Both the position numbers and the translations under genes were made by a program. Source: Candidatus Daviesbacteria bacterium (GTDB lineage Bacteria; Patescibacteriota; Microgenomatia; Daviesbacterales; UBA10151). From it: 64,000 nucleotides of DNA. The stretch's first letter is position 1. The number at the start of each line of letters is the position of its first letter. The notes beneath the pieces are model-generated. The model was not told the DNA's origin and searched no databases. It was given only the letters and a program-made list of their open reading frames with translations. The stretch is taken from the NCBI GenBank assembly GCA_016184225.1, contig JACPDA010000004.1, positions 409,671-473,670 of the forward strand. Reading direction: 5' to 3'. Positions 1 through 64,000 of this stretch are shown here, one piece after another.

Positions 1-935
1 GTATTACTGATGATCCGGGACTTATTCCCCGGATTAATGAAAACAGAGGTAACTCAAGACTGCCTGAACCTTTCCCAAGATTAATACATAATAAGGTGAC
101 TTATGTAACATTTTATTTCAGCAGGAATTACTTTTCTCATTTTACTCCTCAATTTTTATTCTTCTCGGGTGTTCCTCATAAACAACACCATGTCCAGAAT
201 ATGGGTGAGCTTTATCTTTTTCAGGCTCCTTTTCTTTTCTTAGGTCTTTATGCCCTTTTTCGTTTAAGAAGTAGGTTTAAGGGTTTGTTATTTGCCTGGG
301 TTTTGTTAGCCTTTATTCCGGTATCGGTCACAAATGATAGTATTCCTCACGGTTTGAGGACACTGATTGCAGCACCGTTTTATCAGTTAGTTTCCGCGTT
401 AGGCCTTGTATTTAGCTTAAAATGGTTTGGGAAATTGCCGATAGCTTCTAAAGTTTTCTTGGGTGGGATACTGACTTTAGCTGTTACTATGAGCATAGGT
501 TATTATTTATATAATTATTATCAAAAATATCCGATTGCTTACTCCAGAGATTGGCAATATGGTTATAAGCAAGTGGTAGATTATATTGGTAAACACCAGG
601 ATGAATACGATGAAATTATTTTTACCAGGCATTACGGCGAACCGCACATGTTTACGCTGTTTTATTTAAATTATGACCCGACAAAGTATCAAAATTCGCC
701 AAACCTAAATAGATTTGAAACACATGATTGGGTTTGGGTTTTAAGATTTGATAAATACTATTTCCCTGATTTAGGTGATGAGGGAACTCAGTTTGCCGAT
801 ATTGTTAAGGAAAATCCCGGTAAGAAATTATTATTTATCGGCAGAAAAGGGGATTTTCCCAAGGACATCCCTAGGCTCTTTTCAACTAATTTCCTAAATG
901 GTGAGAATGCTTTTGATATTGCGGAGGTTAAATAA
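1..935 (+). CDS. GT-C membrane glycosyltransferase of the PMT_2/GT39-like type (ArnT/PMT-like). The 5' end is truncated by the window edge.
   Basis: The frame stays open from nt 3 up to the listed ORF (96..935) with no stop codon. The C-terminal half (NYFSHF...GVPHKQ...IPHGLR...DWQYGYKQVVDYI...YGEPHMFTLFYLNYDP) aligns colinearly with the C-terminal halves of the two downstream paralogs. Confidence 0.65.
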   Translation, partial: ITDDPGLIPRINENRGNSRLPEPFPRLIHNKVTYVTFYFSRNYFSHFTPQFLFFSGVPHKQHHVQNMGELYLFQAPFLFLGLYALFRLRSRFKGLLFAWVLLAFIPVSVTNDSIPHGLRTLIAAPFYQLVSALGLVFSLKWFGKLPIASKVFLGGILTLAVTMSIGYYLYNYYQKYPIAYSRDWQYGYKQVVDYIGKHQDEYDEIIFTRHYGEPHMFTLFYLNYDPTKYQNSPNLNRFETHDWVWVLRFDKYYFPDLGDEGTQFADIVKENPGKKLLFIGRKGDFPKDIPRLFSTNFLNGENAFDIAEVK

Positions 936-941
936 TATCCG

Positions 942-2369
942 ATGATGTCAATGTCAAAATTGTTGCGGCCAAAAATTTTATTGGCTTTAATTTGTGCGCT
1001 ATTACTTTTCACGCGTTTTTACAAAATTACAGAAATCCCGCCTTCCGTTTATTGGGATGAAGCTTCTATTGGATATAATGCCTATTCTATAGCCCAAAAT
1101 GGTAAAGATGAATGGGGAGAAACTTTCCCGATTCATTTCCGGGCTTTTGGAGAATTTAAGCTGCCGGTTTACATCTATGCTACTGTTTTAAGTGTAAAGA
1201 TTTTCGGTCTCAATGAATTATCTGTCAGGCTGCCGGCTGTTCTATTTTCCTTAGGGGCGGTAGTTATAATTTATTTTCTGACAAAGAGATTGTCAGGAAG
1301 TGAAAGAACGGGAATATTGGCTAGCTTCATTTTTTCTGTTTCTCCATGGTATTTTATCTTTTCAAGAACAGGTTATGAGGCAACGGCAGGTTTGATGTTC
1401 TATCTATTGGCAATATATCTATTTCTCTTCAACAATAGAAATTCCCTGTATATCTTCTTTTCCGTATTAAGTTTTATTTTAAGTGCTTATAGTTACAATA
1501 GTTTCAGGATAGTTGCCCCTTTGACAATTATAATTTTGATTTTCTATGAATTGAAAAATCTTAAATATCTTCTAAGTAAAGCTATTCCACCAATTATATT
1601 ATCTCTGGTTATTCTGATTTTTAGTTTGGTTCCGATCTATAGATTGTATGTTTATGATGTAGGGGCTTCCCGTCTGCAAGTTGTAGGGACGACAAGTTCA
1701 AGCTTCATTAAAAATTATTTTTCTCATTTTAGCCTGGATTTTCTTCTATTGAATGGGGATAAAAACCCAAGAAGCCAGCAACCAGGCTTTGGACAGCTCT
1801 TTTTACCCGAAGCAGCACTCCTATTATTTGGACTTTTGTATTTAATAAGCGGTAAATCAAAATACAAGTGGTTACTTTTTGCATTGTTATTACTCGGACC
1901 GATCCCTGCCGCAATCACTAAAGAATCTCCTCATGCGCTACGTTCTATCGCTATGGTTCCATTCATATCGATTATCTCTGCAGTAGGAGTAGTCGCTTTT
2001 TCTAAAAGGATTAAAAAAGAAAATTATATCTTCTTGATGGTTTGTTTAGTTTTTCTTGCCTTCTTTATTAACTACTTTTGGAGTTTCTTAAATGTATACC
2101 CGACCAAATCTGCAGAAGAGTGGCAATCCGAATACAAAAAGATCTACACGGATAATGGCAATAGGTTTAACGGATACCAACGAATTCTAATTTCGGATCA
2201 GTATGCACAGCCCTATATCTTTACTCTTTTTTATCTGAAATATAATCCTGAAAGCTTTAGGCGGGAAGTTGTTAGAAATAGCATTGATCAGTGGGGGTTC
2301 TCTACAGTTAAAAAATTTGGTAAATTTGAGTTTGGTAAGTACCCGGAACTAATTACCTTTGAAAGATGA
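942..2369 (+). CDS. GT-C glycosyltransferase, PMT_2/GT39-like (ArnT/protein O-mannosyltransferase-like).
   Basis: Polytopic membrane protein. The first-loop motif YWDEASIGYNAYSIAQNG-DEWG-FP---AFGEFKLPVYIY is the DE-loop signature of the ArnT/PMT family. The C-terminal domain is shared with the neighbouring paralogs. Confidence 0.75.
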   Translation: MMSMSKLLRPKILLALICALLLFTRFYKITEIPPSVYWDEASIGYNAYSIAQNGKDEWGETFPIHFRAFGEFKLPVYIYATVLSVKIFGLNELSVRLPAVLFSLGAVVIIYFLTKRLSGSERTGILASFIFSVSPWYFIFSRTGYEATAGLMFYLLAIYLFLFNNRNSLYIFFSVLSFILSAYSYNSFRIVAPLTIIILIFYELKNLKYLLSKAIPPIILSLVILIFSLVPIYRLYVYDVGASRLQVVGTTSSSFIKNYFSHFSLDFLLLNGDKNPRSQQPGFGQLFLPEAALLLFGLLYLISGKSKYKWLLFALLLLGPIPAAITKESPHALRSIAMVPFISIISAVGVVAFSKRIKKENYIFLMVCLVFLAFFINYFWSFLNVYPTKSAEEWQSEYKKIYTDNGNRFNGYQRILISDQYAQPYIFTLFYLKYNPESFRREVVRNSIDQWGFSTVKKFGKFEFGKYPELITFER

Positions 2370-3958
2370 ACAAAGTAAAAATACTGTTGATCGCGATTAT
2401 GGTTTTATCCGGAATATTAAGACTATACAAGATTGATAGTGTTCCGCCTTCGCTGTCCTGGGATGAAGTGGCAGTAGGTTACAATGCCTGGACTATTGCC
2501 AGTTTTGGTAAAGACGAGTACGGAAAAACTTTCCCTGCTTTTTTTAAGTCATTCGGTGACGATAAGCACCCTGTTCATATTTATGCAACCGCCCTATCGG
2601 TAAAATTCTTAGATCTTTCAGAATTTAGTACCAGGTTGCCTTCAGCTGTTTTTGGGGTACTGAATGTGATATTAATATTTTTTCTGGTTAGGTTGATGTT
2701 TGCATCTTCAAATTTAGGTCTTATTGCCTCTTTTTTCTTAAGCGTTTCTCCGTATAATATCCATTTTTCCCGGTTTAACCACGAAGCTAATTTTGCACTA
2801 TTTTTTTTCCTGCTGGGACTTACTTTGTTCTACGGAGCAATTAACAGGAACCTGAAATTATTACCTTTGTCTGCTTTAAGTTTGGGAATTGCTTTTATTT
2901 CCTATCATCCCTCTAAAATAGTCGTTCCTTCGGTGGTAATTCTGCTTGTTTTTTTATATGGCAAGCAGTTACTGAAAGATAGGATCGGTTTTTTTGGGGT
3001 TTTGATAGTTGCCATAATTTTTTCTTTTTTAACTGTGTTCAATCTTCAACTATTAGGGATAGCTCGTGTTAACCAAACTTCATTAAATATGGATGAAGTT
3101 AGGAAAACAAGACTTTTTCAATTGACTAATAATGAGATTCTTGGCCGTTTAAACCTTACACTAACCCAATATAGTTGGCATTTCATGCCTGATTATTTAT
3201 TCATTTCCGGAGATAAAAATCCGCGTTTGTCCGATCAAGTCACAGGGCAGTTTTATATACTTGATGCACTTTTTTTGCTGGCGGGTGTTATCTTTTTATT
3301 ATATAAAAGATCTAAATCAGGGATTGTACTCCTAGTTTGGGCGCTTGTTGCACCGCTTCCTTCGGCTTTAGTATCAGAAGCCCCGCATGCGGCAAGAGCA
3401 ATGTTTACAATGGGAAGCTGGCATATGATTTCTGCTTTAGGCTTTTTCTCGCTTTTAAACATAGCATCAAAGCCGTTTCTTAAAAAGGGGATTTTAATAA
3501 CTACAATAATAATTATGCTGTTTTTACTATCCCGTTATTTAACTCACTATTATGGAGAATATGCCAAAAGAAATGCCATTGATTGGCAATACGGGATGAA
3601 GCAGATAGTTGAGTATGTTAAAGATAATACCCAATATTCCCAGGTTTTTATCACTGATGTCAGGTCCCAGCCCTACATATTTTTCCTGTATTATTTAAAA
3701 ATACCTTTGCCTGAATACTTAAGCTCCGTTGTCTATAACCGTTCGGAAGCTACTAAAAGCTTTAATTCCGTGTCTTATTTTGACAGGTATTATTTTGGCG
3801 GTTGGGATCCGATTGGAAGCTCGCCTGAAAAAGGATTTTTATATGTTTTAACTCCCAGCCAATATGATGGTCTGAGGTATAAGTTGGTTTTTCAAGTCAA
3901 AAAAGTTATATACTATCCCAACGGCACACTAGCTTACTATTTAGTGAGTGCAGATTAA
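2366..3958 (+). CDS. GT-C glycosyltransferase, PMT_2/GT39-like. This is the third tandem paralog.
   Basis: SWDEVAVGYNAW...FGDDKHPVHIYAT loop motif. ATGA overlap with the upstream gene. About 12 predicted TM helices. C-terminal DWQYGMKQIVEYV...SQPYIFFLYYLK domain. Confidence 0.75.
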   Translation: MNKVKILLIAIMVLSGILRLYKIDSVPPSLSWDEVAVGYNAWTIASFGKDEYGKTFPAFFKSFGDDKHPVHIYATALSVKFLDLSEFSTRLPSAVFGVLNVILIFFLVRLMFASSNLGLIASFFLSVSPYNIHFSRFNHEANFALFFFLLGLTLFYGAINRNLKLLPLSALSLGIAFISYHPSKIVVPSVVILLVFLYGKQLLKDRIGFFGVLIVAIIFSFLTVFNLQLLGIARVNQTSLNMDEVRKTRLFQLTNNEILGRLNLTLTQYSWHFMPDYLFISGDKNPRLSDQVTGQFYILDALFLLAGVIFLLYKRSKSGIVLLVWALVAPLPSALVSEAPHAARAMFTMGSWHMISALGFFSLLNIASKPFLKKGILITTIIIMLFLLSRYLTHYYGEYAKRNAIDWQYGMKQIVEYVKDNTQYSQVFITDVRSQPYIFFLYYLKIPLPEYLSSVVYNRSEATKSFNSVSYFDRYYFGGWDPIGSSPEKGFLYVLTPSQYDGLRYKLVFQVKKVIYYPNGTLAYYLVSAD

Positions 3959-4721
3959 AAACGTGAATAAAATTTCCGTAGTATTAGCCACATATAACGA
4001 AGAGGACACTTTAGAAAATTGTCTGGAATCAGTAGAGAAGCTGGCAGGTGAGATTGTAATAGTTGACGGTGGATCAACGGACAAAACTTTAGACATTGCC
4101 AGAAAGTTTAAAGCTAAAATTATTCAGACAGATAATCCGCCGATTTTTCATATAAATAAAAACAAGGCAATAGATGCCGCCACGAAGGAATGGATTTTAC
4201 AACTGGATGCTGATGAGGTGGTAACGAAAGATCTTGTAAAGGAAATAAAAAATGTAATTTCATTAGCATCGGATATTAATGGATATTGGATTCCCAGGAA
4301 GAATTTTTTCTTAGGTAAATTCTTAACAAAAGGCGGTCAGTATCCTGATTATACTTTAAGGTTATACCGACGAGGCAAAGGGAGACTGCCTGCAGAAGAT
4401 GTCCATGAGCAGGCAGTAGTGGAAGGTAAGATTAGTTTCTTAAAGTGCGACCTCTTACACTTACGAGATAAGAATTTCTCTAAGTATCTGGAAAGATTTA
4501 ACAGGTATACTGACTTACTGGCTTTACAAATAAAGGTCAGTAGCAACAGGAAGAATATTTTTTCTTCTCTGAATTTCATTTTCATTAAACCAACTATTTG
4601 GTTTTTAAAAGCTTACTTTCGACATAGAGGATATGTTGACGGTTTTCCGGGTTTCATCTTTGCGCTGTTTTCCTCGCTCAGATTTCCCATCTCGTACATA
4701 AAATTTATGATTAACGAATAA
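3948..4721 (+). CDS. GT2 glycosyltransferase (DPM1/GtrB-like polyprenol-phosphate sugar synthase type).
   Basis: ISVVLATYNEE...IVIVDGGSTDKT...LQLDADEV motifs (GT2 DxD). C-terminal hydrophobic tail. The listed start is a GTG at 3948. An alternative GTG at 3963 would avoid overlapping the upstream stop. Confidence 0.75.
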   Translation: MQIKNVNKISVVLATYNEEDTLENCLESVEKLAGEIVIVDGGSTDKTLDIARKFKAKIIQTDNPPIFHINKNKAIDAATKEWILQLDADEVVTKDLVKEIKNVISLASDINGYWIPRKNFFLGKFLTKGGQYPDYTLRLYRRGKGRLPAEDVHEQAVVEGKISFLKCDLLHLRDKNFSKYLERFNRYTDLLALQIKVSSNRKNIFSSLNFIFIKPTIWFLKAYFRHRGYVDGFPGFIFALFSSLRFPISYIKFMINE

Positions 4722-4724
4722 AAT

Positions 4725-5801
4725 ATGAAAGTTGCAATTAATACCCTGCCATTGAAAAGTGCACATAAGTATAGAGGGATAGGATATTACACTGTTAACC
4801 TGCTTGAATCTTTAAAACAGGAGACTTCTATGGACGTCTCTGAGTTTACCAAGCTGACTGATGTAAAAGATGTCGATATAATTCATTATCCTTGGTTTGA
4901 TCTATTTTTTCATACCTTACCAATAAGAAGGTATTTTCCAACAATTGTTACCATCCATGATCTAATCCCTCTCGTTTTTCCTAATCATTACCCGGTAGGA
5001 TTGAAAGGTAAGTTGAACTTCATACTTCAAAAAATAGCATTAAGTAGTTGTAAATATATTATCACCGATTCCAACACATCCAAACAAGATATAGTCAAAT
5101 TTCTAAAAATCAAAAACGAAAGGATTTCAGTAATATCTTTAGCGGCAGATCCGAAATTTAGGGTTTTAAACAATGATACAAAATTACTTCATATTAAAAG
5201 GCAATATCATCTGCCTGAACGTTTTTTGCTTTATGTTGGGGATGCCAACCGGGTTAAGAATCTCCCTTTCCTGATAGAAGGATACAGAGAGCTTTTGAAG
5301 ATTCCGGGTTATTTGGATCTTAAGTTGGTTTTAGTAGGCGGAGTATTTTTAAAACATGTAGAAAATATAGATCATCCGGAGCTTGAAAGCTTAAAGTTAG
5401 TTAATAAATTAATTAAACAATATGGTCTGGATGAAAACATAATTAGACCAGGACAGATTGAAGATGGTGAATTAGTAGCTTTTTATAATTTGGCAACCCT
5501 GTATGTTCAGCCCTCCATCTATGAGGGTTTTGGACTGCCAATTCTGCAGGCATTTGCCTCCGGAACACCGGTTATAGCATCTAATAAAGGGAGCTTGCCG
5601 GAAATTGGGGGACAAGCGGCTGTGTATTTTGATCCAGTTGACATTAGGCAATTTACAATTATAGCCAAAGAATTATTAGAGGATCCTTCATTGTTAAACA
5701 AGTTATCAAAGCTCGGTTTAAAGCGCTCTACTCAATTTTCCTGGAAGAGGGTGGCACGGGAAACAGAGTCAATTTACCTTAAAGCACTTAAGAATGAATA
5801 G
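4725..5801 (+). CDS. GT4 (GT-B fold) glycosyltransferase.
   Basis: C-terminal EGFGLPILQAFASGTPVIASNKGSLPEIGG, the EX7E-type motif of GT1/GT4 enzymes. Confidence 0.75.
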   Translation: MKVAINTLPLKSAHKYRGIGYYTVNLLESLKQETSMDVSEFTKLTDVKDVDIIHYPWFDLFFHTLPIRRYFPTIVTIHDLIPLVFPNHYPVGLKGKLNFILQKIALSSCKYIITDSNTSKQDIVKFLKIKNERISVISLAADPKFRVLNNDTKLLHIKRQYHLPERFLLYVGDANRVKNLPFLIEGYRELLKIPGYLDLKLVLVGGVFLKHVENIDHPELESLKLVNKLIKQYGLDENIIRPGQIEDGELVAFYNLATLYVQPSIYEGFGLPILQAFASGTPVIASNKGSLPEIGGQAAVYFDPVDIRQFTIIAKELLEDPSLLNKLSKLGLKRSTQFSWKRVARETESIYLKALKNE

Positions 5802-6957
5802 TCACATAAATCTTAATTCACCCGTTTTTAAAATCTTGTTGATTTTTCTTACATGGAGATTTTTACTGATACTAATTTTGCTTTTTGCGATCAATTTTGT
5901 TCCTTTGGGGAGTACAGATCGTTTTTTGGGTGGAGGTCCAGTTAACTATTCCATTTCACCGGAGCTTTTTGCTTGGGCAAACTTTGATGGGGAACATTAT
6001 TTATCGATTGCTATATTCGGATATAAAAATCTAGAGCAGGCTTTTTTCCCGGTTTATCCTGCTTTGATAGCATTTTTCGCTAGACCTGATTCTTATAATT
6101 TACTAACTTCTTTGGTTAATTCTACAATTTTAGGTCTTCTTATTTCGAATGTATCTTTCGTACTAGCCTTGATCTTTCTTTGGGAATTGATAAAAATTGA
6201 TTTTTCAAACAAAATTGCATATTGGGTAATAATACTGCTACTTATCTTTCCGACGTCTTTTTATTTTGGATCGGTCTATAACGAATCAGTGTTTCTGCTT
6301 TTGTCCGTGTTGTCATTCTATAATGCCAGAAAAGGCAAGTGGTTTGCAGCAGGATTGCTGGGAGCGGTTGCATCTGCAACCAGGGTTTTCGGCATTTTTC
6401 TTTTACCGGCACTGCTGATAGAAGCCTGGCAACAGAAGGCACCTTATTCCAGATTAATGTGGATTTTCCTAATTCCTTTTGGGCTGGGAGCTTATATGTG
6501 GTATCTGAATACGACCGTAGGCGATGCTCTTGCTTTCTATCACTTTCAGGGATTAGTCGGCGAGCAGCACCAGCCAGGTATAACATTATTGCCACAAGTA
6601 TACTTTCGTTATATAAAAATGTTTGCAACAACCAGTATGCAGAATCCGATCTTTCAAACATTAATACTGGAGTTTACCATAGGTTTACTTTTTTTCTTCC
6701 TTCCGATTTACGGATACTTTAAGAAAATTAGATTATCATATGTCCTATACGCCATGGTGGGATTCCTGGTGCCGGCGATACAGGGTAGCTTTTCATCGTC
6801 CCCGCGTTATGTGATAATTTTATTTCCTGCGTTTTTAGCCGCCGCTTTATTAGTTAATAGTTTGCCAAAAATAGTTAAAACTCTGATAATACTTTTGTCT
6901 TTTTCTGTTTTTCTGATAGAAGCAGCTCTATTTTTAAGGGGGTACTGGGTAGCATGA
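5794..6957 (+). CDS. Polytopic membrane protein, possibly a DUF2029/PIG-V-like GT-C mannosyltransferase.
   Basis: About 10 hydrophobic helices. ANFDGEHYLSIAIFGYKN...FFPVYPALIAF resembles the first-loop region of GT87/PIG-V-like membrane glycosyltransferases. The assignment is tentative. Confidence 0.4.
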   Translation: MNSHINLNSPVFKILLIFLTWRFLLILILLFAINFVPLGSTDRFLGGGPVNYSISPELFAWANFDGEHYLSIAIFGYKNLEQAFFPVYPALIAFFARPDSYNLLTSLVNSTILGLLISNVSFVLALIFLWELIKIDFSNKIAYWVIILLLIFPTSFYFGSVYNESVFLLLSVLSFYNARKGKWFAAGLLGAVASATRVFGIFLLPALLIEAWQQKAPYSRLMWIFLIPFGLGAYMWYLNTTVGDALAFYHFQGLVGEQHQPGITLLPQVYFRYIKMFATTSMQNPIFQTLILEFTIGLLFFFLPIYGYFKKIRLSYVLYAMVGFLVPAIQGSFSSSPRYVIILFPAFLAAALLVNSLPKIVKTLIILLSFSVFLIEAALFLRGYWVA

Positions 6958-19894: not shown

Positions 19895-19916
19895 CTGATA
19901 TATTATATTAGCTTCT

Positions 19917-50853: not shown

Positions 50854-50931
50854 ATTTAAACACTTCAATTCTAGTTGCAATCCTTAGTAGAAGTCAATGT
50901 CTGTGAAGTGATACAATTTGTTAACGAATTG

Positions 50932-53631: not shown

Positions 53632-53740
53632 ATTGACTATAGCCCAAATATCAACTGATCCGGGGCAAATAGCAGCTAATACAGATCCAGGTTGGATGTT
53701 TTAAATTAAAGAATAGATTATGAAAGGAGGTGTTAGAAAT

Positions 53741-55943: not shown

Positions 55944-56574
55944 TTCTGATAATATTATCCTTTACCTTAAAAAAAAGGTTAGGATAGTTTTTAGATATAA
56001 GGCTTCTTAAAAATTTTAATGGCGGGTAATCGTTTTTTCCATTAAATACATCCGCATCATCGATTAAGATAACATGATTTGTTATTTTGTGGTTAAGGAT
56101 AAAAGTAAGCTCCGCTGCTATCGGAGTATTCTTAGACCCCTTGGCTGTTATCCCTTTTGAATAGTGGGCATCCAGCCAAAACAAAGCAGGTTGGTTAATT
56201 TTTTTTAAAAGCCTGGGCAAAATTTTTGAACTATCCCCATTAATAACTTTAACCTGCTTTAAATGGGCAAATTTTCGCTTGGCGTTTTTAAATAATTTTT
56301 TATCTAATTCGATAGTATAAATTTTTGAAAAATTGTTTTTAACAGCTTTTACCATCATTCCTAAATAGGTGCCGGTTTCTATACAGATGGGCGTTTTGTA
56401 CGTTTTTTGATAACTTTTAATGGTATGTTGTTTAATTAGGTGGGGGGTATTCGGACGTTCCTTCTTTAAATGCCAATCTATTGTCCGGATAATTTGAAAT
56501 ACCGGAAAGGCCAAGTCGTATATAAAAGTAAATTTTAAATATCCGATTATATTACCAGTTGTTATTTGATGCAT
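55897..56574 (-). CDS. Putative SAM-dependent methyltransferase (FkbM/TylF-like).
   Basis: ICIETGTYLGMM...IYTIELD...INGDSS...LFWLDAHYS...ILIDDAD is loosely consistent with a small class I methyltransferase fold. The assignment is weak. Confidence 0.35.
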   Translation of the reverse strand: MHQITTGNIIGYLKFTFIYDLAFPVFQIIRTIDWHLKKERPNTPHLIKQHTIKSYQKTYKTPICIETGTYLGMMVKAVKNNFSKIYTIELDKKLFKNAKRKFAHLKQVKVINGDSSKILPRLLKKINQPALFWLDAHYSKGITAKGSKNTPIAAELTFILNHKITNHVILIDDADVFNGKNDYPPLKFLRSLISKNYPNLFFKVKDNIIRITPKHLSRKADKKHS

Positions 56575-58175: not shown

Positions 58176-58204
58176 TTGATCTGCAGTTTTATTATAATAT
58201 TTAG

Positions 58205-58402
58205 ATGAACAGAATAATTAGGTTTTTCTTTCTGATATTTATTGTCTTAGTTTTTCCGCCAAAAGCTTATGCCTATTTGGACCCGGGGACCGGCAGTTAT
58301 TTTTTTCAGATATTGATCGGGATAGTTATCGGAGGGCTCGTCAGTATCAAAATATTTTGGAAAAAAATTAAAGACTTCTTCAATGGTAAAAAAGAAAATT
58401 AA
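58205..58402 (+). CDS. Small hydrophobic protein (65 aa). Hypothetical.
   Basis: Two hydrophobic segments. No similarity recognised. Confidence 0.25.
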   Translation: MNRIIRFFFLIFIVLVFPPKAYAYLDPGTGSYFFQILIGIVIGGLVSIKIFWKKIKDFFNGKKEN

Positions 58403-59600
58403 CAATCAGCACAACAGGATTAACATCTTCGCATTAGCTGCCACAGGTTTAGGTATCTCTGGTGGGGATAGAATCTTTATTGAATTTGCTAGAAGGTGGA
58501 ACAAAGAAATGCCTGTGGAAATCTATGTTTCGGAGGAAGGATACCAAATGTGCCTCAGGCAGAATTTGAAAGAAAGCAAAGATTTACGATTTACGATTTA
58601 CGATTTACGAACATGGAATAAATTAGGATTTATAGCGAATTATGTCGTTAGAATTTTAACAGGGATAAAAATTGGTCTGACTCTCAAATTAGAAAATTCA
58701 CAAAATTCAATTATTTATTCTGCTTCCGAATTTTGGATGGATTCGCTACCGGCTTTTTTGCTGAAATTACGCTTTCCAAAAATCAAATGGGCAGCTGCCT
58801 GGTACCAGACTGCGCCCAATCCGTTTAAGGGTTTCTCAGAAGGTGAAGCAGGGACAAGGGATAGACTGAGAGCGCTTATTTACTGGCTTATCCAGCTTCC
58901 CATTAAACCCCTGATTTCCGGATTTGCTGATTATGTTCTGGTTAATAACGACGGGGAGAAAAAACAATTCCCCAATCTTGATAAAAGGGGTAGGGCTCTA
59001 GTGGTTTTAGGGGCGGTAGATTTGGAGGGAATAAAAAGTTGGAAATTGAAGTTTAGAAACTTACCAAAAATTTATGAGGCAGTTTTTCAGGGCAGGTTTC
59101 ATCCGCAAAAAGGAGTAATGGAACTGATTGATATCTGGAAACATGTGGCAGCTAAGAAACCGGATGCCAAACTGGTGATGATTGGAGACGGACCATTAAT
59201 GGAAAATGTAAAATTACAAATTACAAATTACAAATTAAATAAAAATATAATCCTTAAAGGCTATATGTTTGATGGGGAAGAGAAATTTAAAATTTTTGCC
59301 CAAAGCAGAATTGTAGTGCATCCGGCATTTTTTGATTCCGGAGGCATGGCTTCTGCTGAAGCAATGGCTTTCGGACTTCCTTGTGTAGGTTTTAATCTAG
59401 GGGCCTATAAATACTATTACCCGAAAGGGATGGAGAAAGTTAGAGAAGGGGATATTAAAGCCTTTGCAGATAAAGTCGCAGAGTTCTTACAGGATAATAA
59501 TTTATACAGAAAGGTAGCTAACAAGGCATTACACCTTATAGGTGATAAATGGTCTTGGGAATACCGGGCTCGTCAAATCCTCAACGCAGTGTTAGAATAA
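58383..59600 (+). CDS. GT4 (GT-B) glycosyltransferase containing two internal heptanucleotide repeat tracts.
   Basis: C-terminal FDSGGMASAEAMAFGLPCVGFNLG (EX7E region). See the repeat features at 58581..58608 and 59211..59238. Confidence 0.75.
   Translation: MVKKKINNQHNRINIFALAATGLGISGGDRIFIEFARRWNKEMPVEIYVSEEGYQMCLRQNLKESKDLRFTIYDLRTWNKLGFIANYVVRILTGIKIGLTLKLENSQNSIIYSASEFWMDSLPAFLLKLRFPKIKWAAAWYQTAPNPFKGFSEGEAGTRDRLRALIYWLIQLPIKPLISGFADYVLVNNDGEKKQFPNLDKRGRALVVLGAVDLEGIKSWKLKFRNLPKIYEAVFQGRFHPQKGVMELIDIWKHVAAKKPDAKLVMIGDGPLMENVKLQITNYKLNKNIILKGYMFDGEEKFKIFAQSRIVVHPAFFDSGGMASAEAMAFGLPCVGFNLGAYKYYYPKGMEKVREGDIKAFADKVAEFLQDNNLYRKVANKALHLIGDKWSWEYRARQILNAVLE
58581..58608. repeat. Perfect heptanucleotide tandem repeat (GATTTAC)x4, plus a partial GA, inside the GT4 coding sequence.
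   Basis: Read directly: gatttacgatttacgatttacgatttacga. Encodes DLRFTIYDLRT. Confidence 0.9.
59211..59238. repeat. Heptanucleotide tandem repeat (AAATTAC)x3 plus one imperfect unit, inside the same GT4 coding sequence.
   Basis: Read directly: aaattacaaattacaaattacaaattaa. Encodes KLQITNYKLN. Confidence 0.85.
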
Positions 59601-59609
59601 CTTCCTAAT

Positions 59610-60548
59610 ATGAAAAGATCCTTACCAGGTGTTTCAGCGGTTATCCCGAGTTTTAATGACAAGAAAAAGGTGTTCAGGCTATTGGATTCTTTGAAAAAAT
59701 CAACTTATCCTAACATGGAAGTTATTGTGGTAGTAAACGGACCGGATGAGACTTTAACGGACGGAAAAAAGAAATATAAGACAAGCTTGTTGCTTCGCAA
59801 TAAGCGGGTGAAGTGGGTTGATGCCGGGAGGGAAAATATCGGACAGACAGGTTGTTATAACTTAGGCCTTGCCCATGCCAATAAAAAAAACCACATTCTC
59901 TATATTGATTCTGATGTGGTAGTTGATAAGGAGATGATTGGTAAACTGGTTAAAAGGGTGGAATCAGATAAAAAAATTGGCATTGTGACACCGATGATTT
60001 TATATCTCTCGGATAAAAATTGGGTCAATCAGGCAGGCTCTGATGTGAATCTGACCACCGGCAGGGTGAGGGTTGGCTGGGGCCCCAAGCGGGATTTTCT
60101 GTTTCCAAAAGAGGTTCAAAATTCCGGTACAGCCATGCTAATTAGAAGAAAAGTTATTGATAAAATCGGCGGGTTTGATAATTGGTTTTTATGTTATTTT
60201 GACCCGGATTATTGTCTGCGGGCAAAAAAGGCAGGTTTTTCTACCTGGTATGAACCAAAAGCAATTTGCTATCATGATCAATCTACAGATCCTAACGTAT
60301 GGCGGCCAAGAGTATTGGGCAGGGCATATCTCTTGGGTAGGAATCGGATTTTATTTATGAGAAGGCATGGCAATATGCTGACTTTTTCTTTATCTCTGCC
60401 TTTACTTTTGGGGTACTATCTTTTTGAGACGATGCGATTTGGGCAGATAAATAAATTTTTTGAATTGGCTTGGGGAAGTATAGTCGGTTATTTTTATCCC
60501 CTAAGTTCGGATAATTTTATTCCACTACCAAAGATAAAAAATGGGTAA
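59610..60548 (+). CDS. GT2 glycosyltransferase.
   Basis: VSAVIPSFNDKKKVFRLLDSL...VIVVVNGPDE...YIDSDVV (DxD). Confidence 0.75.
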   Translation: MKRSLPGVSAVIPSFNDKKKVFRLLDSLKKSTYPNMEVIVVVNGPDETLTDGKKKYKTSLLLRNKRVKWVDAGRENIGQTGCYNLGLAHANKKNHILYIDSDVVVDKEMIGKLVKRVESDKKIGIVTPMILYLSDKNWVNQAGSDVNLTTGRVRVGWGPKRDFLFPKEVQNSGTAMLIRRKVIDKIGGFDNWFLCYFDPDYCLRAKKAGFSTWYEPKAICYHDQSTDPNVWRPRVLGRAYLLGRNRILFMRRHGNMLTFSLSLPLLLGYYLFETMRFGQINKFFELAWGSIVGYFYPLSSDNFIPLPKIKNG

Positions 60549-60586
60549 AAAGGCATGATAGAATGAATTGATTCTAATTCTAAAAT

Positions 60587-62485
60587 ATGTATAAAATATT
60601 ACAAAACCGGTTTTTCTATCTTTCCTGTTTCCTGATAATACTTGTAGTGATAAGTCAATACACTCAATTGCAGTTGGCTATCGAAAGAGGTTATCCGGGA
60701 GATGATTGGGGGAATTGGTTGACGTTCAAATTTATCAGCGGTTCTTTCATTGATAAGATTATCCAAAATTGGCTAATTGCCGGGCCTCAGTTTCAAAGCT
60801 TCGGACTTTATCCGGGAATAATGGAGGCAATATTTAGGGAGAAGCATTACCTGATTAATATTGCGAGCATTGTCCTTAAAACTCTGGCCACTATTTCCAT
60901 ATTTCCGACCATTTATATAATTTCTAAAAATAAATTACTGGCTTTTTTAACAACTATTCTCTATGCCATCAGTCATTCTTCGGCCGGCGGGTTAGCCATT
61001 ATGGTAAATGGAGGTGAATACCTGGGGATTTTTTTGATGAATTTATCTTTAATTTTTTACTACCTTTCCGTTAAAAAATTTCATTTTTTTAATTTTCTTC
61101 CTGCCGTCCTGGCTTTATTTCTGGCTTTTGTGATAGCCCCAAACAGAGTTTATCCGATTTCATTTATTCTGGTTCTGGTGGAGATATTCTTAATTTTCAG
61201 AAGAAAAACCAGGTTAATGTTTTCATTGCTCAGAATATTTACAGTGATTAGTCCGGTAGTATTAATAGTTTTATTTTCCCCAAAACATATTAATTATGGT
61301 CTTCAAGTAAAAGGCGACACTTTGCAACTTATCCTGAACGGAAACTGGCATCTTCTTTTAACCAACACTTTATCAGGAATAGGTTATATGATGGTTAATT
61401 CGGAATTTATTAAACAGGCAAATATAAGTTTATCGGTTTTTGAAAGCCTCGGTTCGTATATGAGTTTTCTTGTAAGTAAGATATTTTGGTTTCTTATGTT
61501 AACATCCGCTGTCTTGTCCGTTTTTCTGTCCAAGAAACCTGTCAGATTCTTTATCACGGTTTTAGGTATAAACTTAATATTTGATGTTTTAAATTATTTC
61601 ATTTCCTCACATTTTTTATTTCTTCCCTCAAATTTAAGGTTGGAGCCGGATCAATACTTTTTCACAGCTCAAGTTGTCTTACCAATTGCTTTTTTTGCAA
61701 TTTCGCTGGCAATAGGTCTGTTGTTGGAATATATTCTGGAAAAAGAAAAGAAAACTATTTTATTATTACCCTTTTTTTCTTTGGCATTTTCAATAATATT
61801 TCTTTATTCGCCTTGGGTAATAGCCGGAAGATACTATACTCTTTGGCCGGTGCACCGTTATTTGACTGTGCCTCAACTTGGGGTTAGTTTATTCTTAGCC
61901 TCGCTGCTTGTAATTGCTTTTGGCAGAATATCCAGGCAACTTAGATTGTACTTTATTTTATTTATTATTCCCGCTCTTCTATTTTTTAATTATTTCCAGA
62001 GTAAACAGGAGATAGATAGTTTCTTTTATCAATACATAATTTCAGGTGGGAATATCACGGCTGAGGCAGTGGTGCAAAGGAAATTGCTAGACAAAATTCC
62101 CAAGTCAAAACTGAGAGAGAATGTAGCAATTTATATCTCCCCAGAGGCTAATTCCCCCCAGTCGCAATATTGGCTGACAGCCTTGAGTCTAGTTAATGTA
62201 GAACACTGGCTATCATTAAGAAAATCCTATCTTTATGACACAAAACAGCTGGATGGCTGTATAGTGGCCGTTTATGATATAAAGTTTCTGGAAGAAAAAG
62301 CCTTACTTAAAGATAAAACAGGTTTTGTAATGAGGGGGAAGTGTTTTGATCAGAAAGAAAAGCCGATCTTAATTGATAAAGAGGAGGTTTTCTTTCCGGT
62401 AGATAATTTTTATGCATTTAAAATGAAGGAAACAGAGCTTACTGATATTAGAGATGATATTTTACGGCAACTGCGGATGAACTGA
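60587..62485 (+). CDS. Family member 6 (subfamily X). Putative novel GT-C-like glycosyltransferase.
   Basis: ERGYPGDDWGNWLTFKF after TM1, about 13 TM helices, C-terminal IYISPEANS...DGCIVAVYD...FYAFKMKETELTDIRDDILRQLRM. Confidence 0.55.
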   Translation: MYKILQNRFFYLSCFLIILVVISQYTQLQLAIERGYPGDDWGNWLTFKFISGSFIDKIIQNWLIAGPQFQSFGLYPGIMEAIFREKHYLINIASIVLKTLATISIFPTIYIISKNKLLAFLTTILYAISHSSAGGLAIMVNGGEYLGIFLMNLSLIFYYLSVKKFHFFNFLPAVLALFLAFVIAPNRVYPISFILVLVEIFLIFRRKTRLMFSLLRIFTVISPVVLIVLFSPKHINYGLQVKGDTLQLILNGNWHLLLTNTLSGIGYMMVNSEFIKQANISLSVFESLGSYMSFLVSKIFWFLMLTSAVLSVFLSKKPVRFFITVLGINLIFDVLNYFISSHFLFLPSNLRLEPDQYFFTAQVVLPIAFFAISLAIGLLLEYILEKEKKTILLLPFFSLAFSIIFLYSPWVIAGRYYTLWPVHRYLTVPQLGVSLFLASLLVIAFGRISRQLRLYFILFIIPALLFFNYFQSKQEIDSFFYQYIISGGNITAEAVVQRKLLDKIPKSKLRENVAIYISPEANSPQSQYWLTALSLVNVEHWLSLRKSYLYDTKQLDGCIVAVYDIKFLEEKALLKDKTGFVMRGKCFDQKEKPILIDKEEVFFPVDNFYAFKMKETELTDIRDDILRQLRMN

Positions 62486-62495
62486 AACTACAAAA

Positions 62496-63773
62496 TTAAG
62501 GTTGCTCCATAACATCAACTATTTTTTCCCCTAGTTCTACTGCGTAATTTGTACCTCTATCCCAAGGATATACCATATCAAGATTAGAGATGTAAATCCC
62601 CTTTAAGGGTGTCTGAAAAATAGGAATTTTTTTAGGGTAATCAGTTGTAAAAACAGGTTGCGCATAAGGGTCAATAAAAAGTTTGTAGCTGAGAATATTT
62701 TGTCTGTAGTCTGGATTTATCTTTTTAAGATATGGATCAAATTTTTTAAGGAGACTGCCGGCATTTAAGCTTAAGTTCGGATGATCCGGATGCAAGTAAT
62801 TACCCACATATAATATATGTTTGTCAGAGTAAAATTTCTTGTTTATAAAATTAGTATGCTCAACAAGAACTAAAAATGGAAATTTTTTGTCTGTAATATT
62901 TAACCAATAGGTTTTTTTCATAAACTGTTTCTTAAGAATCAACACTAATACTTGAGCATGTAAATGTTTTACAGAATTTATCCGCTTAATATAATTCTTC
63001 GGTAATCCCTGTGCTATTTTACTAAAGACAGGGGAAGGGAGGGTTACAATTGCCTCATCAAATTTAAAACTTTTGCCGCTAGTTATTATGAGGATACCGC
63101 TTTTTAGGCTTTTCAAGCCGGTTACCTGAGAATTTAGTTTAACTTCCCCGCCTAACTTTTTGATCCTTTGGTTTAAATGGTCTGCAAATGCTTTGAAACC
63201 CCCTTCAGGGTAGGCCAAGGAAAAGGTTCTCTTTTTTATCCGTGCCCAAAACCATACCAGAGAAATTCTGTTTTTATAACTCCCGAATTTAGCTGAGAAA
63301 AGAGGATCCCAAATTAGCTTAGTCGCTTTATGTCCCATGAACTGTTTTATCCAAGTCAGAGCTGTTTTCCTTTCAAAAATTGACGGATTTGATATTAACT
63401 TTAAGTAAAGGGAAAAAAAGCCTACCCTTAAGCGTTCAATAAATGATAACGAGCGGAAAAATAAAAGCGAGAAAACAGAATCAAAAGGATATAATTTTCC
63501 ATTAATATAAACATCTGTACGTGGTCTTATAATATGTACTTTATGATCTATTTCTTTTGCTAGATGTAATATCGTACTGTCATTGGTAAACCAGTGATGA
63601 TAAGATTTTTCCAGTGCCCACTCCCAATCAAATAACTTAAAACCTTTCGCCAATCCGCCAATATCATTTTCTTTTTCAAAAATTGTAACTTGGTAACCCT
63701 TCTTTAAAAGTTTAAAAGCTGCTGTTAGTCCTGTAAAACCTCCACCAAGTATAGCTACTTTTCGGTTAATCAT
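62496..63773 (-). CDS. FAD/NAD(P)-binding oxidoreductase (amine-oxidase/protoporphyrinogen-oxidase-like fold, possibly UDP-galactopyranose-mutase-related).
   Basis: KVAILGGGFTGLTAAFKLLKKGYQVTIFEKENDIGG dinucleotide-binding motif and VELGEKI C-terminal FAD motif region. Confidence 0.6.
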   Translation of the reverse strand: MINRKVAILGGGFTGLTAAFKLLKKGYQVTIFEKENDIGGLAKGFKLFDWEWALEKSYHHWFTNDSTILHLAKEIDHKVHIIRPRTDVYINGKLYPFDSVFSLLFFRSLSFIERLRVGFFSLYLKLISNPSIFERKTALTWIKQFMGHKATKLIWDPLFSAKFGSYKNRISLVWFWARIKKRTFSLAYPEGGFKAFADHLNQRIKKLGGEVKLNSQVTGLKSLKSGILIITSGKSFKFDEAIVTLPSPVFSKIAQGLPKNYIKRINSVKHLHAQVLVLILKKQFMKKTYWLNITDKKFPFLVLVEHTNFINKKFYSDKHILYVGNYLHPDHPNLSLNAGSLLKKFDPYLKKINPDYRQNILSYKLFIDPYAQPVFTTDYPKKIPIFQTPLKGIYISNLDMVYPWDRGTNYAVELGEKIVDVMEQP

Positions 63774-63813
63774 TTGGCTATTATATGTTATACTCTTTGG
63801 GATTAAAACCCTT

Positions 63814-64000
63814 ATGAATGCTTTGGTTTCTGTAGTTATCGTGACACATAATAGAACTAAAGATTTAACAGAGTGTATTAGATCTTACATTAACTCAAGT
63901 TATAAAAATTTAGAAATCATAGTAGTTGATAACGGTTCTAAACCGCCGCTTGCCACCTGGCTGACAAAAAAATATCCCCGGGTGAAACTGGTTACTTCAG
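63814..64000 (+). CDS. GT2 glycosyltransferase, 3' end truncated by the window edge.
   Basis: ATG at 63814, translation MNALVSVVIVTHNRTKDLTECIRSYINSSYKNLEIIVVDNGSKPP is the standard GT2 N-terminus. Frame open to the window end. Confidence 0.55.
   Translation, partial: MNALVSVVIVTHNRTKDLTECIRSYINSSYKNLEIIVVDNGSKPPLATWLTKKYPRVKLVTS

Follow-up and report, generated by a model that had tools for sequence, protein, structure and literature searches.

The analyzed window, a stretch of 64 kb, comprises 53 ORFs of at least 100 amino acids and one cut gene (Table 1). They form 16 same-strand blocks, or 17 including the cut gene, with a coding share of 97.6% and a median intergenic gap of 0.5 nt, in line with the at least 15 short operons on alternating strands with almost no gaps described in an initial annotation. 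Nine GT2 genes (g04, g08, g12, g18, g24, g27, g39, g51 and the cut ORF) and five GT4 genes (g05, g09, g28, g38, g50) were identified by Pfam, and all-vs-all BLASTP defined six paralogous proteins of 579–632 amino acids (g19, g20, g21, g22, g26, g52), called the DDW family; these counts equal the earlier ones. The three GT39-like genes correspond to g02, g03 and g06, which are PMT_2/PMT or PIG-V-like, with g01 as the C-terminal half of a fourth, and the at least three other large membrane proteins to g11, g36 and g44, which lack a Pfam match. The count of about 20 nucleotide-sugar enzymes also holds: 17 are clear, to which methyltransferases or oxidoreductases add three to four. If glycosyltransferases are assumed to make up about 2% of genes, the probability of at least 23 among 54 genes is approximately 5e-25.

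Table 1. Genes of the analyzed window with position, strand, assignment and supporting evidence.
Gene	Position	Strand	Assignment	Evidence
g01	96..935	+	PMT_2-type GT-C, C-terminal 279 of 550 aa	BLASTP to g02, g03
g02	942..2369	+	PMT_2/PMT GT-C (GT39/GT83-like)	PF13231 1.2e-10; PF02366 above cut-off; 7 TM
g03	2366..3958	+	PMT_2/PMT GT-C	PF13231 1.9e-17
g04	3948..4721	+	GT2	PF00535 2e-22
g05	4725..5801	+	GT4	PF00534 1e-26
g06	5794..6957	+	PIG-V/PMT_2-like membrane mannosyltransferase (GT-C)	PF04188 1e-7, above cut-off; 7 TM
g07	6954..8267	+	Wzx-like MOP flippase	PF01943 5e-17, PF13440
g08	8173..8979	+	GT2; weak PpgS/ArnC-like NCBIfam matches	PF00535 7e-23
g09	8976..10103	+	GT4	PF00534 6e-40
g10	10106..11083	+	GDP-mannose 3,5-epimerase (makes GDP-L-galactose)	55.6% identity, E 7e-117, Arabidopsis GME 2c59
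g11	11083..13404	+	773-aa protein, predicted GT-C fold, second family without Pfam match	
g12	13370..14131	-	GT2 like AglJ/dolichyl-phosphate hexose synthases	PF00535 1e-27; AglJ 1.7e-34, below cut-off
g13	14217..15554	+	Nucleotide-sugar 6-dehydrogenase	TIGR03026 306 bits, above cut-off
g14	15551..16507	+	SDR nucleotide-sugar epimerase/dehydratase	PF01370 3.5e-57; top PDB UDP-glucose 4-epimerase 2e-39
g15	16523..17023	+	Small signal-anchored DUF5667 protein	PF18915 1.7e-7
g16	17027..18274	+	Sugar C-methyltransferase	PF08484 1.6e-58, PF08421
g17	18255..19148	-	RmlD-like 4-ketoreductase	PF04321 5e-46
g18	19145..20008	-	GT2 like DPM1/PpgS polyprenyl-phosphate sugar synthases	5mlz 4e-7; PpgS 2.6e-19
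g19	19917..21737	+	DDW family, predicted GT-C; motif EDR	34% identity to g20
g20	21734..23623	+	DDW family, predicted GT-C; chosen for structure model	
g21	23598..25337	-	DDW family, predicted GT-C, second subgroup; FGDDW	BLASTP g20 7e-14; 36% identity to g22
g22	25358..27145	-	DDW family, predicted GT-C, second subgroup	BLASTP, motif alignment
g23	27155..28303	-	GT75 NDP-pyranose mutase (GDP-L-Gal or GDP-L-Fuc, pyranose to furanose)	PF03214 2e-20
g24	28300..28983	-	GT2 like DPM1/AglJ polyprenyl-phosphate sugar synthases	5mlz 4.5e-8; AglJ 2.5e-15
g25	28992..29675	-	Methyltransferase, Methyltransf_24-like	Below Pfam cut-off
g26	29806..31695	+	DDW family, predicted GT-C; divergent from g25-g23	BLASTP
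g27	31692..32525	+	GT2	PF00535 5e-28
g28	32522..33652	+	GT4	PF00534 3e-29
g29	33576..34457	+	SAM methyltransferase	PF08241 1e-24
g30	34467..35948	-	493-aa soluble protein, no assigned family	Weak HAD-like C-terminus
g31	36011..37021	+	GFO/MocA oxidoreductase, like UDP-GlcNAc 3-dehydrogenase/WbpB	Pfam, NCBIfam
g32	37006..37572	+	Hexapeptide sugar N-acetyltransferase (WbpD/NeuD-like)	Pfam, NCBIfam
g33	37553..38671	+	DegT-family sugar aminotransferase	PF01041 2e-114
g34	38668..39636	+	SDR 4,6-dehydratase/decarboxylase-type enzyme	Pfam, NCBIfam
g35	39911..41620	+	NodU/CmcH-type carbamoyltransferase	PF16861 3.5e-57, PF02543
g36	41711..43246	-	511-aa membrane protein, ~12 TM; invariant G-x-D-x-W after TM1	No Pfam match
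g37	43260..44408	-	UDP-GlcNAc 2-epimerase-like	PF02350 5e-47; WecB model 164 bits, below cut-off
g38	44431..45642	-	GT4	Pfam
g39	45731..46759	+	GT2	Pfam
g40	46748..47749	-	GFO/MocA sugar oxidoreductase	Pfam, NCBIfam
g41	47753..49033	-	Sugar C-methyltransferase, paralog of g16	Pfam, BLASTP
g42	49055..50113	-	SDR dehydratase/epimerase	Pfam
g43	50077..50880	-	Glucose-1-phosphate cytidylyltransferase-like	TIGR02623 2e-78, 263 bits vs. cut-off 300
g44	50875..53631	+	918-aa membrane protein	Similarity to two right-flank proteins
g45	53720..54496	+	NAD+ synthase NadE	PF02540 2e-60; NCBI name NAD(+) synthase
g46	54633..55943	+	Nucleotide-sugar 6-dehydrogenase	Pfam
g47	55897..56574	-	225-aa protein	Weak methyltransferase-like matches
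g48/g49	56612..58175	+	Sulfatase-superfamily membrane protein, LtaS/EptA-like architecture	PF00884 27.8 bits
g50	58383..59600	+	GT4	Pfam
g51	59610..60548	+	GT2	Pfam
g52	60587..62485	+	DDW family, predicted GT-C	BLASTP, motif alignment
g53	62496..63773	-	FAD oxidoreductase, function unassigned	NF005560
Cut ORF	63814..64000	+	Start of 532-aa GT2 + methyltransferase fusion, running past window	

Three of the GT2 proteins, g12, g18 and g24, are nearest to AglJ/PpgS, with all such NCBIfam matches below the curated cut-offs, and the sole PDB sequence match of both g18 and g24 is the Dol-P-Man synthase 5mlz. Each is encoded beside a GT-C gene (g12 next to g11, g18 next to g19–g20, g24 next to g21–g22 and g26), and this pairing, which the initial annotation had pointed out, recurs in related genomes.

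The epimerase g10 keeps the Ser/Cys/Tyr/Lys/Lys catalytic residues of GME. The mutase g23 is 41% identical to MtdL (7xpr, E 1.5e-97) and retains 12 of 13 functional residues; the MtdL residues binding Mn2+, nucleotide and sugar are kept (PMC9937993). MtdL and Hyg20, which serve the supply of GDP-L-galactofuranose/GDP-L-fucofuranose in the A201A and hygromycin A antibiotic pathways, are named in PMC9937993 as the only characterized bacterial GT75 enzymes. In contrast to these, g23 lies in a primary envelope-glycan locus near a DPM1-like GT2 and GT-C genes and not in a secondary-metabolite cluster. The gene g48/g49 is read as two overlapping ORFs, and the same sequence is present in seven assemblies.

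The GT-C genes fall into several groups. Six tandem PMT_2 genes lie within 83 kb, three of them in the window; g01 starts 717 nt left of the window and is present in full in an identical contig. All six carry a 'DE' pair about 30–40 residues in, just past the N-terminal hydrophobic segment, and g02 has a 'WDE' motif after TM1. The DDW proteins, which form a real family in line with the initial annotation, and g11 match no Pfam or NCBIfam family. Of 33 aligned DDW family members, 30 have an acidic (D/E)(D/E)W motif after TM1, and a GT-C fold is predicted for the family from the model of g20. The best structural neighbors of g20 include STT3B, Pmt2, Pmt4, PglB, AglB and DPY19, and the lipid- and glycan-directed ALG12, ALG9, ArnT, AftA, AftB and PimE score as well as these protein glycosyltransferases; identity to solved GT-C enzymes is just 7–13% and Foldseek TM-scores are 0.3–0.4. 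A GT-C fold is likewise predicted for g11, whose C-terminal domain is similar to that of AglB. The g44 protein shows 25–27% identity over approximately 500 amino acids to two right-flank proteins (E 1e-38 to 1e-44), and as these paralogs have weak or faint PF11847 (GT-C_AftD) matches, g44 is probably an AftD-like GT-C. No significant link of the DDW family to g11, g36 or g44 was found with hhalign. Counting the six tandem PMT_2 genes, g06, the six DDW genes, g11, and g44 with its two paralogs, there are at least 17 GT-C genes in 83 kb.

The whole window had been described as one 64-kb glycan island. The gene content is consistent with this except for nadE (g45), an embedded housekeeping gene outside glycan synthesis. 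The glycan gene region is larger than 64 kb, however, and spans at least 83 kb with the window as its middle part: in identical metagenome contigs the region continues for at least 9 kb beyond each end with further GT-C genes, and no boundary was seen across the window and these flanks of about 9 kb. It is split into about 16 transcription blocks with several distinct sugar pathways and so need not serve a single glycan.

The proteins g11, g23 and NadE are identical to, or share a 90% cluster with, NCBI proteins of Candidatus Daviesbacteria bacterium encoded on a 769,731-bp contig, which makes the source a MAG of this taxon; NCBI taxonomy places it in the Microgenomates group of the Patescibacteria group, and the suspected likeness to CPR/Microgenomates was thus correct. 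The GC content of the window is about 0.36 (range 0.32–0.38), and low GC is common to all related loci. Over 82.8 kb, nadE included, the tetranucleotide use of each 5-kb piece correlates with that of the remainder at r 0.945–0.98. Consistent with the reported lack of mobile element boundaries, no tRNA, Rfam family match or IS-like repeat was found in the window, and integrase and transposase domains are absent from every window ORF (Pfam).

Among 13 related loci, 12 show synteny of the core g13–g18 with DDW genes at 60–85% protein identity, and the remaining one is a 2.5-kb fragment with a DDW gene only; the loci with a stated source are all from Daviesbacteria or Patescibacteria. Orthologs of g15 occur in 11 of the 13. 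Orthologs share 60–75% identity, compared with 16–39% for paralogs within the genome. Three further metagenome loci have the g24–g23 pair beside a DDW gene (67–88% identity), and in one of them a g10 ortholog lies about 6 kb away. Genes like g26 flank the g24–g23 module in loci L034, L035 and L036, and g25 is kept beside g24 in L034 and L035. Due to the uniform composition over 82.8 kb with nadE inside and the core synteny in 12 of 13 loci, the region seems to be no acquired island and appears to be inherited vertically within Daviesbacteria; the term island is therefore adequate as a description, but not for an acquired unit.

In Corynebacteriales, polyprenyl-phosphate sugars derived from Ppm1 or DprE feed Emb, AftA-D and PimE in the synthesis of arabinogalactan and lipoarabinomannan, and a PpgS-Rv3779 pair is present. 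The region resembles this system in having many different GT-C enzymes, predicted to act outside the membrane and to be fed by polyprenyl-phosphate monosaccharides from DPM1-like GT2 enzymes, and in a predicted furanose donor. Furthermore, the structural neighbors include AftA, AftB, AftD and PimE, g18 is nearest to PpgS, and the g44 paralogs show the AftD matches. However, the host is a CPR bacterium of another phylum with a largest contig of 0.77 Mb, its genes are gathered in one region, and seven window GT-C proteins belong to families absent from Pfam and NCBIfam. Moreover, instead of D-Araf, which is made by DprE1/2 in Corynebacteriales, the furanose would be L-Galf or L-Fucf, which a GT75 mutase is predicted to form from a GDP-sugar. 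Two-component lipid-carrier systems (GtrA/GtrB/GtrC, CsbB/YfhO, ArnC/ArnT, Ppm1/Pmt and the archaeal AglJ/AglB type) likewise have a GT2 synthase gene beside a GT-C gene, but here the modules are multi-copy and the GT-C partners lie outside the YfhO, GtrC, ArnT and STT3 families by sequence. Neither a GtrA-type flippase nor an initiating phosphoglycosyltransferase (WecA/WbaP type) nor a recognizable polymerase was detected among the window ORFs or among the precomputed Pfam domains of the flanks, so parts of any pathway must lie elsewhere or in unassigned proteins.

Three other explanations were considered. It is rather unlikely that the locus serves mainly protein glycosylation, with the PMT_2 and DDW proteins and g11 as protein O- (or N-/C-) glycosyltransferases for S-layer, pilin or other surface proteins instead of polysaccharide or lipoglycan builders. 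The matches of g02 and g03 to the protein O-mannosyltransferase family PF02366, which pass the Pfam threshold, the protein glycosyltransferases among the neighbors of g20, the AglB-like domain of g11 and the lack of a polymerase or chain-length regulator (Wzz) among the window ORFs by Pfam point to this. However, the lipid- and glycan-directed enzymes score equally and the acceptor cannot be read from a GT-C fold, whereas the Wzx-like flippase and the many GT2/GT4 genes point to oligosaccharide assembly, and the analysis turned up no candidate for an acceptor protein. Still less probable is that the DDW family, g11, g36 and g44 are transporters, polymerases, ligases or scaffolds which are GT-C-like only in their helical-bundle architecture, as the low identities and TM-scores and the hhalign result could suggest.

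That the region is a common O-antigen or capsule island of the Wzx/Wzy type, gained by horizontal transfer, is disfavored and very improbable, even though the Wzx-like g07, the density of sugar-nucleotide genes including deoxy- and amino-sugar pathways, the GT2/GT4 genes, the low GC and a weak Wzy_C match of g03 (E 0.0098, below the cut-off) would fit. Neither a priming phosphoglycosyltransferase nor Wzz nor a convincing Wzy was found among the window ORFs, the GT-C genes dominate, tRNA, integrase and IS element are absent from the window, the composition is even also across nadE, and the synteny extends to Daviesbacteria and Patescibacteria genomes. Typical Wzx/Wzy clusters are about three to four times smaller.

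The best reading is therefore one of inherited envelope-glycosylation modules with polyprenyl-phosphate sugars and GT-C enzymes; with a probability of roughly 65%, the window forms the central part of an envelope-glycosylation supercluster on the chromosome of an uncultivated Daviesbacteria host with a small genome, and this supercluster spans at least 83 kb and is apparently vertically inherited. Cytoplasmic enzymes would provide unusual activated sugars: GDP-L-galactose and its furanose form by g10 and g23, C-methylated deoxyhexoses, probably from CDP-glucose, by g43–g40 and g16–g17, amino/acetamido uronic-acid-type sugars by g31–g34, g37 and g13/g46, and carbamoylated or methylated variants by g35, g25 and g29. 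Lipid-linked intermediates would be built by GT2 and GT4 enzymes on the inner membrane face and flipped by g07. Single sugars may be loaded onto polyprenyl phosphate by g12, g18, g24 and perhaps g08, with L-Galf-phosphopolyprenol as a putative intermediate, and GT-C enzymes would pass them on, at the outer face, to acceptors that may be glycans, lipids or proteins, each old GT-C paralog presumably having its own linkage or acceptor. How these modules are combined is likewise part of the proposal. What makes the locus unusual is the number of at least 12 membrane GT-C genes in the window, seven of which come from two families without a Pfam or NCBIfam match.

The window was scanned with Pfam over all of its ORFs, i.e., 53 non-nested ORFs that are 100 aa or longer and one gene cut by the right edge. 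Nine genes belong to glycosyltransferase family GT2 (g04, g08, g12, g18, g24, g27, g39, g51, and the cut ORF) and five to GT4 (g05, g09, g28, g38, and g50), while g02 and g03 are PMT_2/PMT genes, g06 codes for a PIG-V-like membrane mannosyltransferase and g07 for a Wzx-like flippase. In addition, another PMT_2 gene is represented by its C-terminal half (g01), and 17 clear sugar-nucleotide enzymes as well as several methyltransferases were found. The counts of the initial annotation (9 GT2, 5 GT4, 3 GT39-like, 6 DDW-family proteins, and about 20 nucleotide-sugar enzymes) proved accurate, and its at least 15 short operons with almost no intergenic space correspond to 16 same-strand blocks, a coding share of 97.6% and a median intergenic gap of 0.5 nt. 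The GC content is 0.32–0.38 throughout. If glycosyltransferases are assumed to make up about 2% of genes, the probability of finding at least 23 of them among 54 genes is approximately 5e-25. The features with known coordinates are listed in the table.

Coordinates of the genes and sites discussed (window numbering unless stated otherwise)
Feature	Position	Strand	Description
g10	10106-11083	+	GDP-mannose 3,5-epimerase homolog
g15	16523-17023	+	small signal-anchored DUF5667 protein
g23	27155-28303	-	predicted GT75 mutase
g30	34467-35948	-	493-aa soluble protein
g36	41711-43246	-	membrane protein, about 12 TM segments
g45 (nadE)	53720-54496	+	housekeeping NAD+ synthase
g48	56612-57037	+	possible part of a sulfatase-superfamily enzyme
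T-run	56831-56839		near the g48/g49 split
g49	56847-58175	+	442 aa, possible part of the same enzyme
g53	62496-63773	-	FAD oxidoreductase, NF005560
Cut ORF	63814		GT2, cut by the right edge
110-aa membrane ORF	68783-69115	+	right flank, from contig L009
113-aa membrane ORF	72366-72707	+	right flank, from contig L009
ORF pair in related locus L021	13805-15171 (L021 numbering)		probably a decayed DDW paralog

Metagenome contigs overlapping the window by 3.4 and 4.3 kb with 0 mismatches extend it to 82.8 kb. They carry glycan genes past both window ends, so that the region is not confined to 64 kb as initially annotated, and no region boundary was found within the 82.8 kb. On the left flank, three additional PMT_2 genes in tandem and the beginning of g01 bring the row to six, and beyond these lie a 385-aa membrane protein, one GT4 and two GT2. 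In all six PMT_2 genes, direct reading of the sequence places a DE pair approximately 30–40 residues in, just past the N-terminal hydrophobic segment. The g02 and g03 products match PF13231/PF02366 above the gathering score and carry this motif after TM1, which classifies them as GT39/GT83-type PMT_2 proteins (g01 in part); the role of the motif is presumably the one generally known for PMTs. The right flank starts with a 532-aa GT2-methyltransferase fusion, followed by proteins of 1123 and 1094 aa and the first part of an approximately 866-aa protein. Both large proteins show weak or faint matches to PF11847 (GT-C_AftD) and are homologous to g44 (918 aa) with E-values of 1e-38 to 1e-44. They alternate with a pair of membrane ORFs (110 and 113 aa) that are paralogs of each other and might serve as small flippase-like or accessory subunits. 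The former has no Pfam match in the precomputed annotation; the latter is absent from that annotation, and a gene caller placed a 102-aa ORF at its position. Altogether, at least 12 proteins of the membrane glycosyltransferase fold class GT-C are encoded in the window and at least 17 in the 82.8 kb, and the region of at least 83 kb covers at least 11% of the largest contig (0.77 Mb) of the metagenome-assembled genome (MAG).

The source lineage is supported by several proteins. The g11 product is 100% identical to MBI2196458.1 (HYU45_02480, “hypothetical protein”, Candidatus Daviesbacteria bacterium), g23 is identical to MBI2196470.1 (HYU45_02540), and NadE clusters with MBI2196493.1; the latter two lie on the same contig (769,731 bp) as the first. 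NCBI taxonomy places the organism in the Patescibacteria group, Microgenomates group, Candidatus Daviesiibacteriota, and the initial assumption of a CPR/Microgenomates origin was therefore correct.

A horizontally acquired island would be expected to show a boundary and a patchy presence among close relatives. The window contains no tRNA, Rfam family, IS-like repeat, integrase or transposase domain, and no boundary formed by a tRNA, integrase, IS element or direct repeat is annotated in the window or its 9-kb flanks, as had been noted for the window from its sequence. The tetranucleotide usage of each 5-kb piece correlates with that of the remainder of the 82.8 kb with r of 0.945–0.98, including the piece with nadE, so that in this region-internal comparison no break in composition occurs. 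The nadE gene is embedded centrally in the glycan region, and its piece has the same composition as the neighboring genes. Species-representative genomes were scanned with the DDW family, using an alignment narrower than the 33-sequence one, and 13 loci were obtained. All of those with an informative record label belong to Daviesbacteria or Patescibacteria. In 12 of the 13, part or all of the block g13-g14-g15-g16-g17-g18, followed by two to six DDW genes, recurs at 60–85% protein identity, so that the core is syntenic rather than patchy; genes like g11, g21, g27, g28, and g29 are often found near the block. The remaining locus (L025), a 2.5-kb fragment, contains nothing but a DDW gene. A low GC content was rejected as a mark of foreign DNA, because all 13 related loci share values of 0.32–0.37. 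Furthermore, the six DDW paralogs of the window are 16–39% identical to each other, whereas orthologs in other genomes reach 60–75%, which indicates that the duplications are ancient and that the copies were kept. Such a pattern points to a vertically inherited, lineage-typical trait rather than an O-antigen island imported in recent times. The overall interpretation of the initial annotation is supported, with the corrections that the region is larger, that it appears to be no island in the sense of horizontal transfer but a native feature conserved in Daviesbacteria loci, and that it comprises a set of modules, which do not demonstrably form one pathway.

Seven of the related loci (L016, L017, L021, L023, L025, L026, and L027) come from ENA “binchicken” MAGs, are syntenic with the Daviesbacteria cluster at 60–85% identity and have a GC content of 0.32–0.36. 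Because of this synteny, identity and GC content, their label “uncultured Gammaproteobacteria bacterium” is doubted and is probably a placeholder or mislabel.

The six DDW proteins (579–632 aa), named after a (D/E)(D/E)W motif, form one paralog family without Pfam match and with two subgroups, g19, g20, g26, and g52 on the one hand and g21 and g22 on the other. Their 11–13 hydrophobic segments followed by an extracytoplasmic domain agree with the GT-C architecture of about 10–13 TM helices. A confident AlphaFold2 model of g20 (pLDDT 90.2, pTM 0.90), based on 33 aligned sequences, shows a helical bundle (residues 1–505) and a beta-rich domain (residues 514–629). Among solved structures, its similarity to GT-C enzymes is clearly above that to other folds, the next of which scores below 7, and Foldseek returned the same set. 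The motif (g20 residues 40–42) follows directly after TM1 in 30 of the 33 aligned members; g19 and P0042 carry R for W, and P0065 reads T-E-W. Its acidic residues fall into the first extracytoplasmic loop, a placement deduced from secondary structure and not from coordinates. Acidic residues after TM1 are tied to catalysis in GT-C enzymes. R190 and E202 (g20 numbering) are invariant in the alignment. A search of 1.84 billion representative proteins with the DDW profile yielded 273 clusters (50% identity) at E ≤ 1e-30 and 498 at E ≤ 1e-10, i.e., the family is real but small. In locus L021, two short ORFs lying side by side resemble the N-terminal and middle portions of DDW proteins (g52-like and g26-like). 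They probably represent a decayed paralog, which suggests turnover in the tandem DDW arrays.

The DDW proteins, g11, g36, and g44 have no match in Pfam (E ≤ 0.01) or NCBIfam (E ≤ 1), the DDW and g36 family profiles match no PDB sequence, and DDW and g11 match no profile HMM of the curated GT-C families (PMT/PMT_2, STT3, ArnT, YfhO, AftD etc.). Alignments of the DDW profile with g11, g36, g44 or their family profiles by hhalign were not significant, so the four cannot be joined as one family by sequence. For g11, the predicted structure is similar to solved GT-C enzymes, which places it in this superfamily at the level of fold. DDW and g11 thus seem to be two GT-C families, supported by predicted fold and absent from curated databases. 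The g36 family, with 215 matches in Daviesbacteria, Levybacteria and other Patescibacteria, carries a G-x-D-x-W that is invariant, follows TM1 and is reminiscent of the DDW motif.

On the donor side, g10 is a full-length match to the Arabidopsis GDP-mannose 3,5-epimerase (GME; 55.6% identity across 313 aa) and keeps all five of Ser143, Cys145, Tyr174, Lys178, and Lys217, which we take to be the GME catalytic residues. The g23 product matches PF03214 with 73.7 bits (cut-off 23.8) and MtdL with 41% identity (E 1.5e-97); of the 13 MtdL residues that bind metal, nucleotide or sugar, it shares 12 and has Thr in place of Ser228. MtdL is a Mn2+-dependent GT75 mutase, which interconverts GDP-L-galactopyranose or GDP-L-fucopyranose and the furanose forms (PMC9937993). 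Judging from PF03214, the DXD and His for Mn2+, the conserved Arg and the sugar-binding residues, g23 is predicted to be a well-conserved GT75 NDP-pyranose mutase, though its NCBI label is “hypothetical protein”. Taken together, g10 and g23 lead to the prediction that an envelope glycan of a CPR bacterium contains L-galactofuranose (or L-fucofuranose).

Three GT2 proteins, g12, g18, and g24, resemble polyprenyl-phosphate sugar synthases of the DPM1/AglJ/PpgS/GtrB type, a likeness which seems to hold at family level only. The sole PDB sequence match of g18 and g24 is the dolichyl-phosphate mannose synthase of Pyrococcus, and the nearest NCBIfam models of the three are AglJ, Dol-P-hexose transferase, and PpgS, where their best scores against equivalog models (119.6, 69.6, and 56.7 bits) are below the cut-offs of 325–370. 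The previously noted pairing of DPM1-like and GT-C genes is borne out, since g12 adjoins g11, g18 adjoins g19-g20, and g24 adjoins g21-g22 and g26, and the g18-DDW pair recurs in related genomes. This adjacency is the contextual basis for predicting a polyprenyl-phosphate- or -diphosphate-linked sugar donor for the DDW family. Moreover, the g24-g23 pair is located next to a g26-like DDW gene in three further metagenome loci (L034, L035, and L036) with 67–88% identity, accompanied by g25 in two of them and by a g10 ortholog about 6 kb away in one. GT75 mutase, DPM1-like GT2 and GT-C form a conserved triad, which predicts a new lipid-linked furanose donor. By strong homology, g10 would convert GDP-mannose to GDP-L-Galp and g23 would convert this to GDP-L-Galf; as gene context suggests, g24 may then form polyprenyl-phosphate-L-Galf, from which a DDW GT-C may transfer L-Galf. 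To our knowledge, a polyprenyl-phosphate L-galactofuranose (or L-fucofuranose) donor is not known from any organism.

Further sugar modules can be proposed at family level only. The genes g43-g40 may encode a CDP-glucose-derived C-methyl deoxyhexose pathway, g16-g17 a second C-methyltransferase/RmlD-like set, and g35 a carbamoylation, whereas g31-g33, g37, and g13/g46 resemble WbpA/B/D/E/I, an analogy which we assume and which would point to acetamido uronic-acid-type sugars. A priming phosphoglycosyltransferase, Wzy, Wzz, an ABC exporter or a GtrA-type flippase was not recognized in the annotation of window and flanks; Pfam returned no PF00953, PF02397 or Wzz in the window, and Wzy_C only at E 0.0098 in g03. 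Some steps are therefore encoded elsewhere or by g30, g36, g47 or small ORFs, and an unrecognized polymerase may be among g36 or g30. With the Wzx-like g07 alone, the region is not a Wzx/Wzy cluster as defined.

Several minor genes were also observed. The g30 gene is transcribed alone between two glycan operons, and its product has no family match except a sub-threshold HAD-like C-terminus. Among the 13 related loci, 11 keep the g15 gene within the cluster, and a weak DUF5667 match also occurs in the 1094-aa AftD-like protein. The genes g48 and g49 overlap by 191 nt in different frames. Joined, they resemble a single membrane-anchored enzyme of the sulfatase superfamily (LtaS/EptA type) that is interrupted close to a T-run. 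Since g49 is identical in seven independent assemblies, the split is not an assembly error; the gene could be a pseudogene or undergo programmed frameshifting, or both ORFs could be genuine genes. Finally, g53 was rejected as a flavin UDP-galactopyranose mutase, as it matches amine-oxidase-type models and NF005560 (PRK07233, “hypothetical protein”; 394 bits) and not GLF; a 60% identical ortholog is present in the cluster of L021.

The nearest known logic, polyprenyl-phosphate sugars combined with GT-C chemistry, is that of mycobacterial arabinogalactan/LAM assembly and of the two-component PMT, Gtr, and Arn systems. In contrast to these, seven GT-C proteins of the region belong to families outside the curated libraries, the GT-C density is extreme for a small CPR genome, and the predicted furanose route uses a GT75 mutase. 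This is a familiar type of system in an unusual configuration and no change of paradigm. The literature on glycosyltransferases of Daviesbacteria, Microgenomates, Patescibacteria or CPR and on L-galactofuranose yielded nothing relevant but the GT75 structure paper; its coverage was partial, and this is weak evidence of novelty. Material for experimental tests is provided by the DDW and g11 families, the GT75 mutase labeled “hypothetical protein” and the triad of mutase, GT2 and GT-C.

The genomes of CPR bacteria are tiny, and many biosynthetic pathways are missing from them. That at least 83 kb is given to surface glycans suggests that the envelope glycan is a major investment, plausibly for host attachment or phage defense. 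With a probability of about one in four, a complex heteroglycan or lipoglycan like mycobacterial arabinogalactan/LAM is assembled outside the cytoplasm by Daviesbacteria, and perhaps by other Microgenomates as well, using about 17 or more GT-C enzymes, mostly of uncurated families, and as one donor polyprenyl-phosphate L-Galf/L-Fucf made by GME, GT75 mutase and DPM1-like GT2. If so, this would be a new kind of CPR cell envelope, which might matter for phage evasion and, provided that Daviesbacteria live as episymbionts in the way other CPR lineages do, for attachment to the host.
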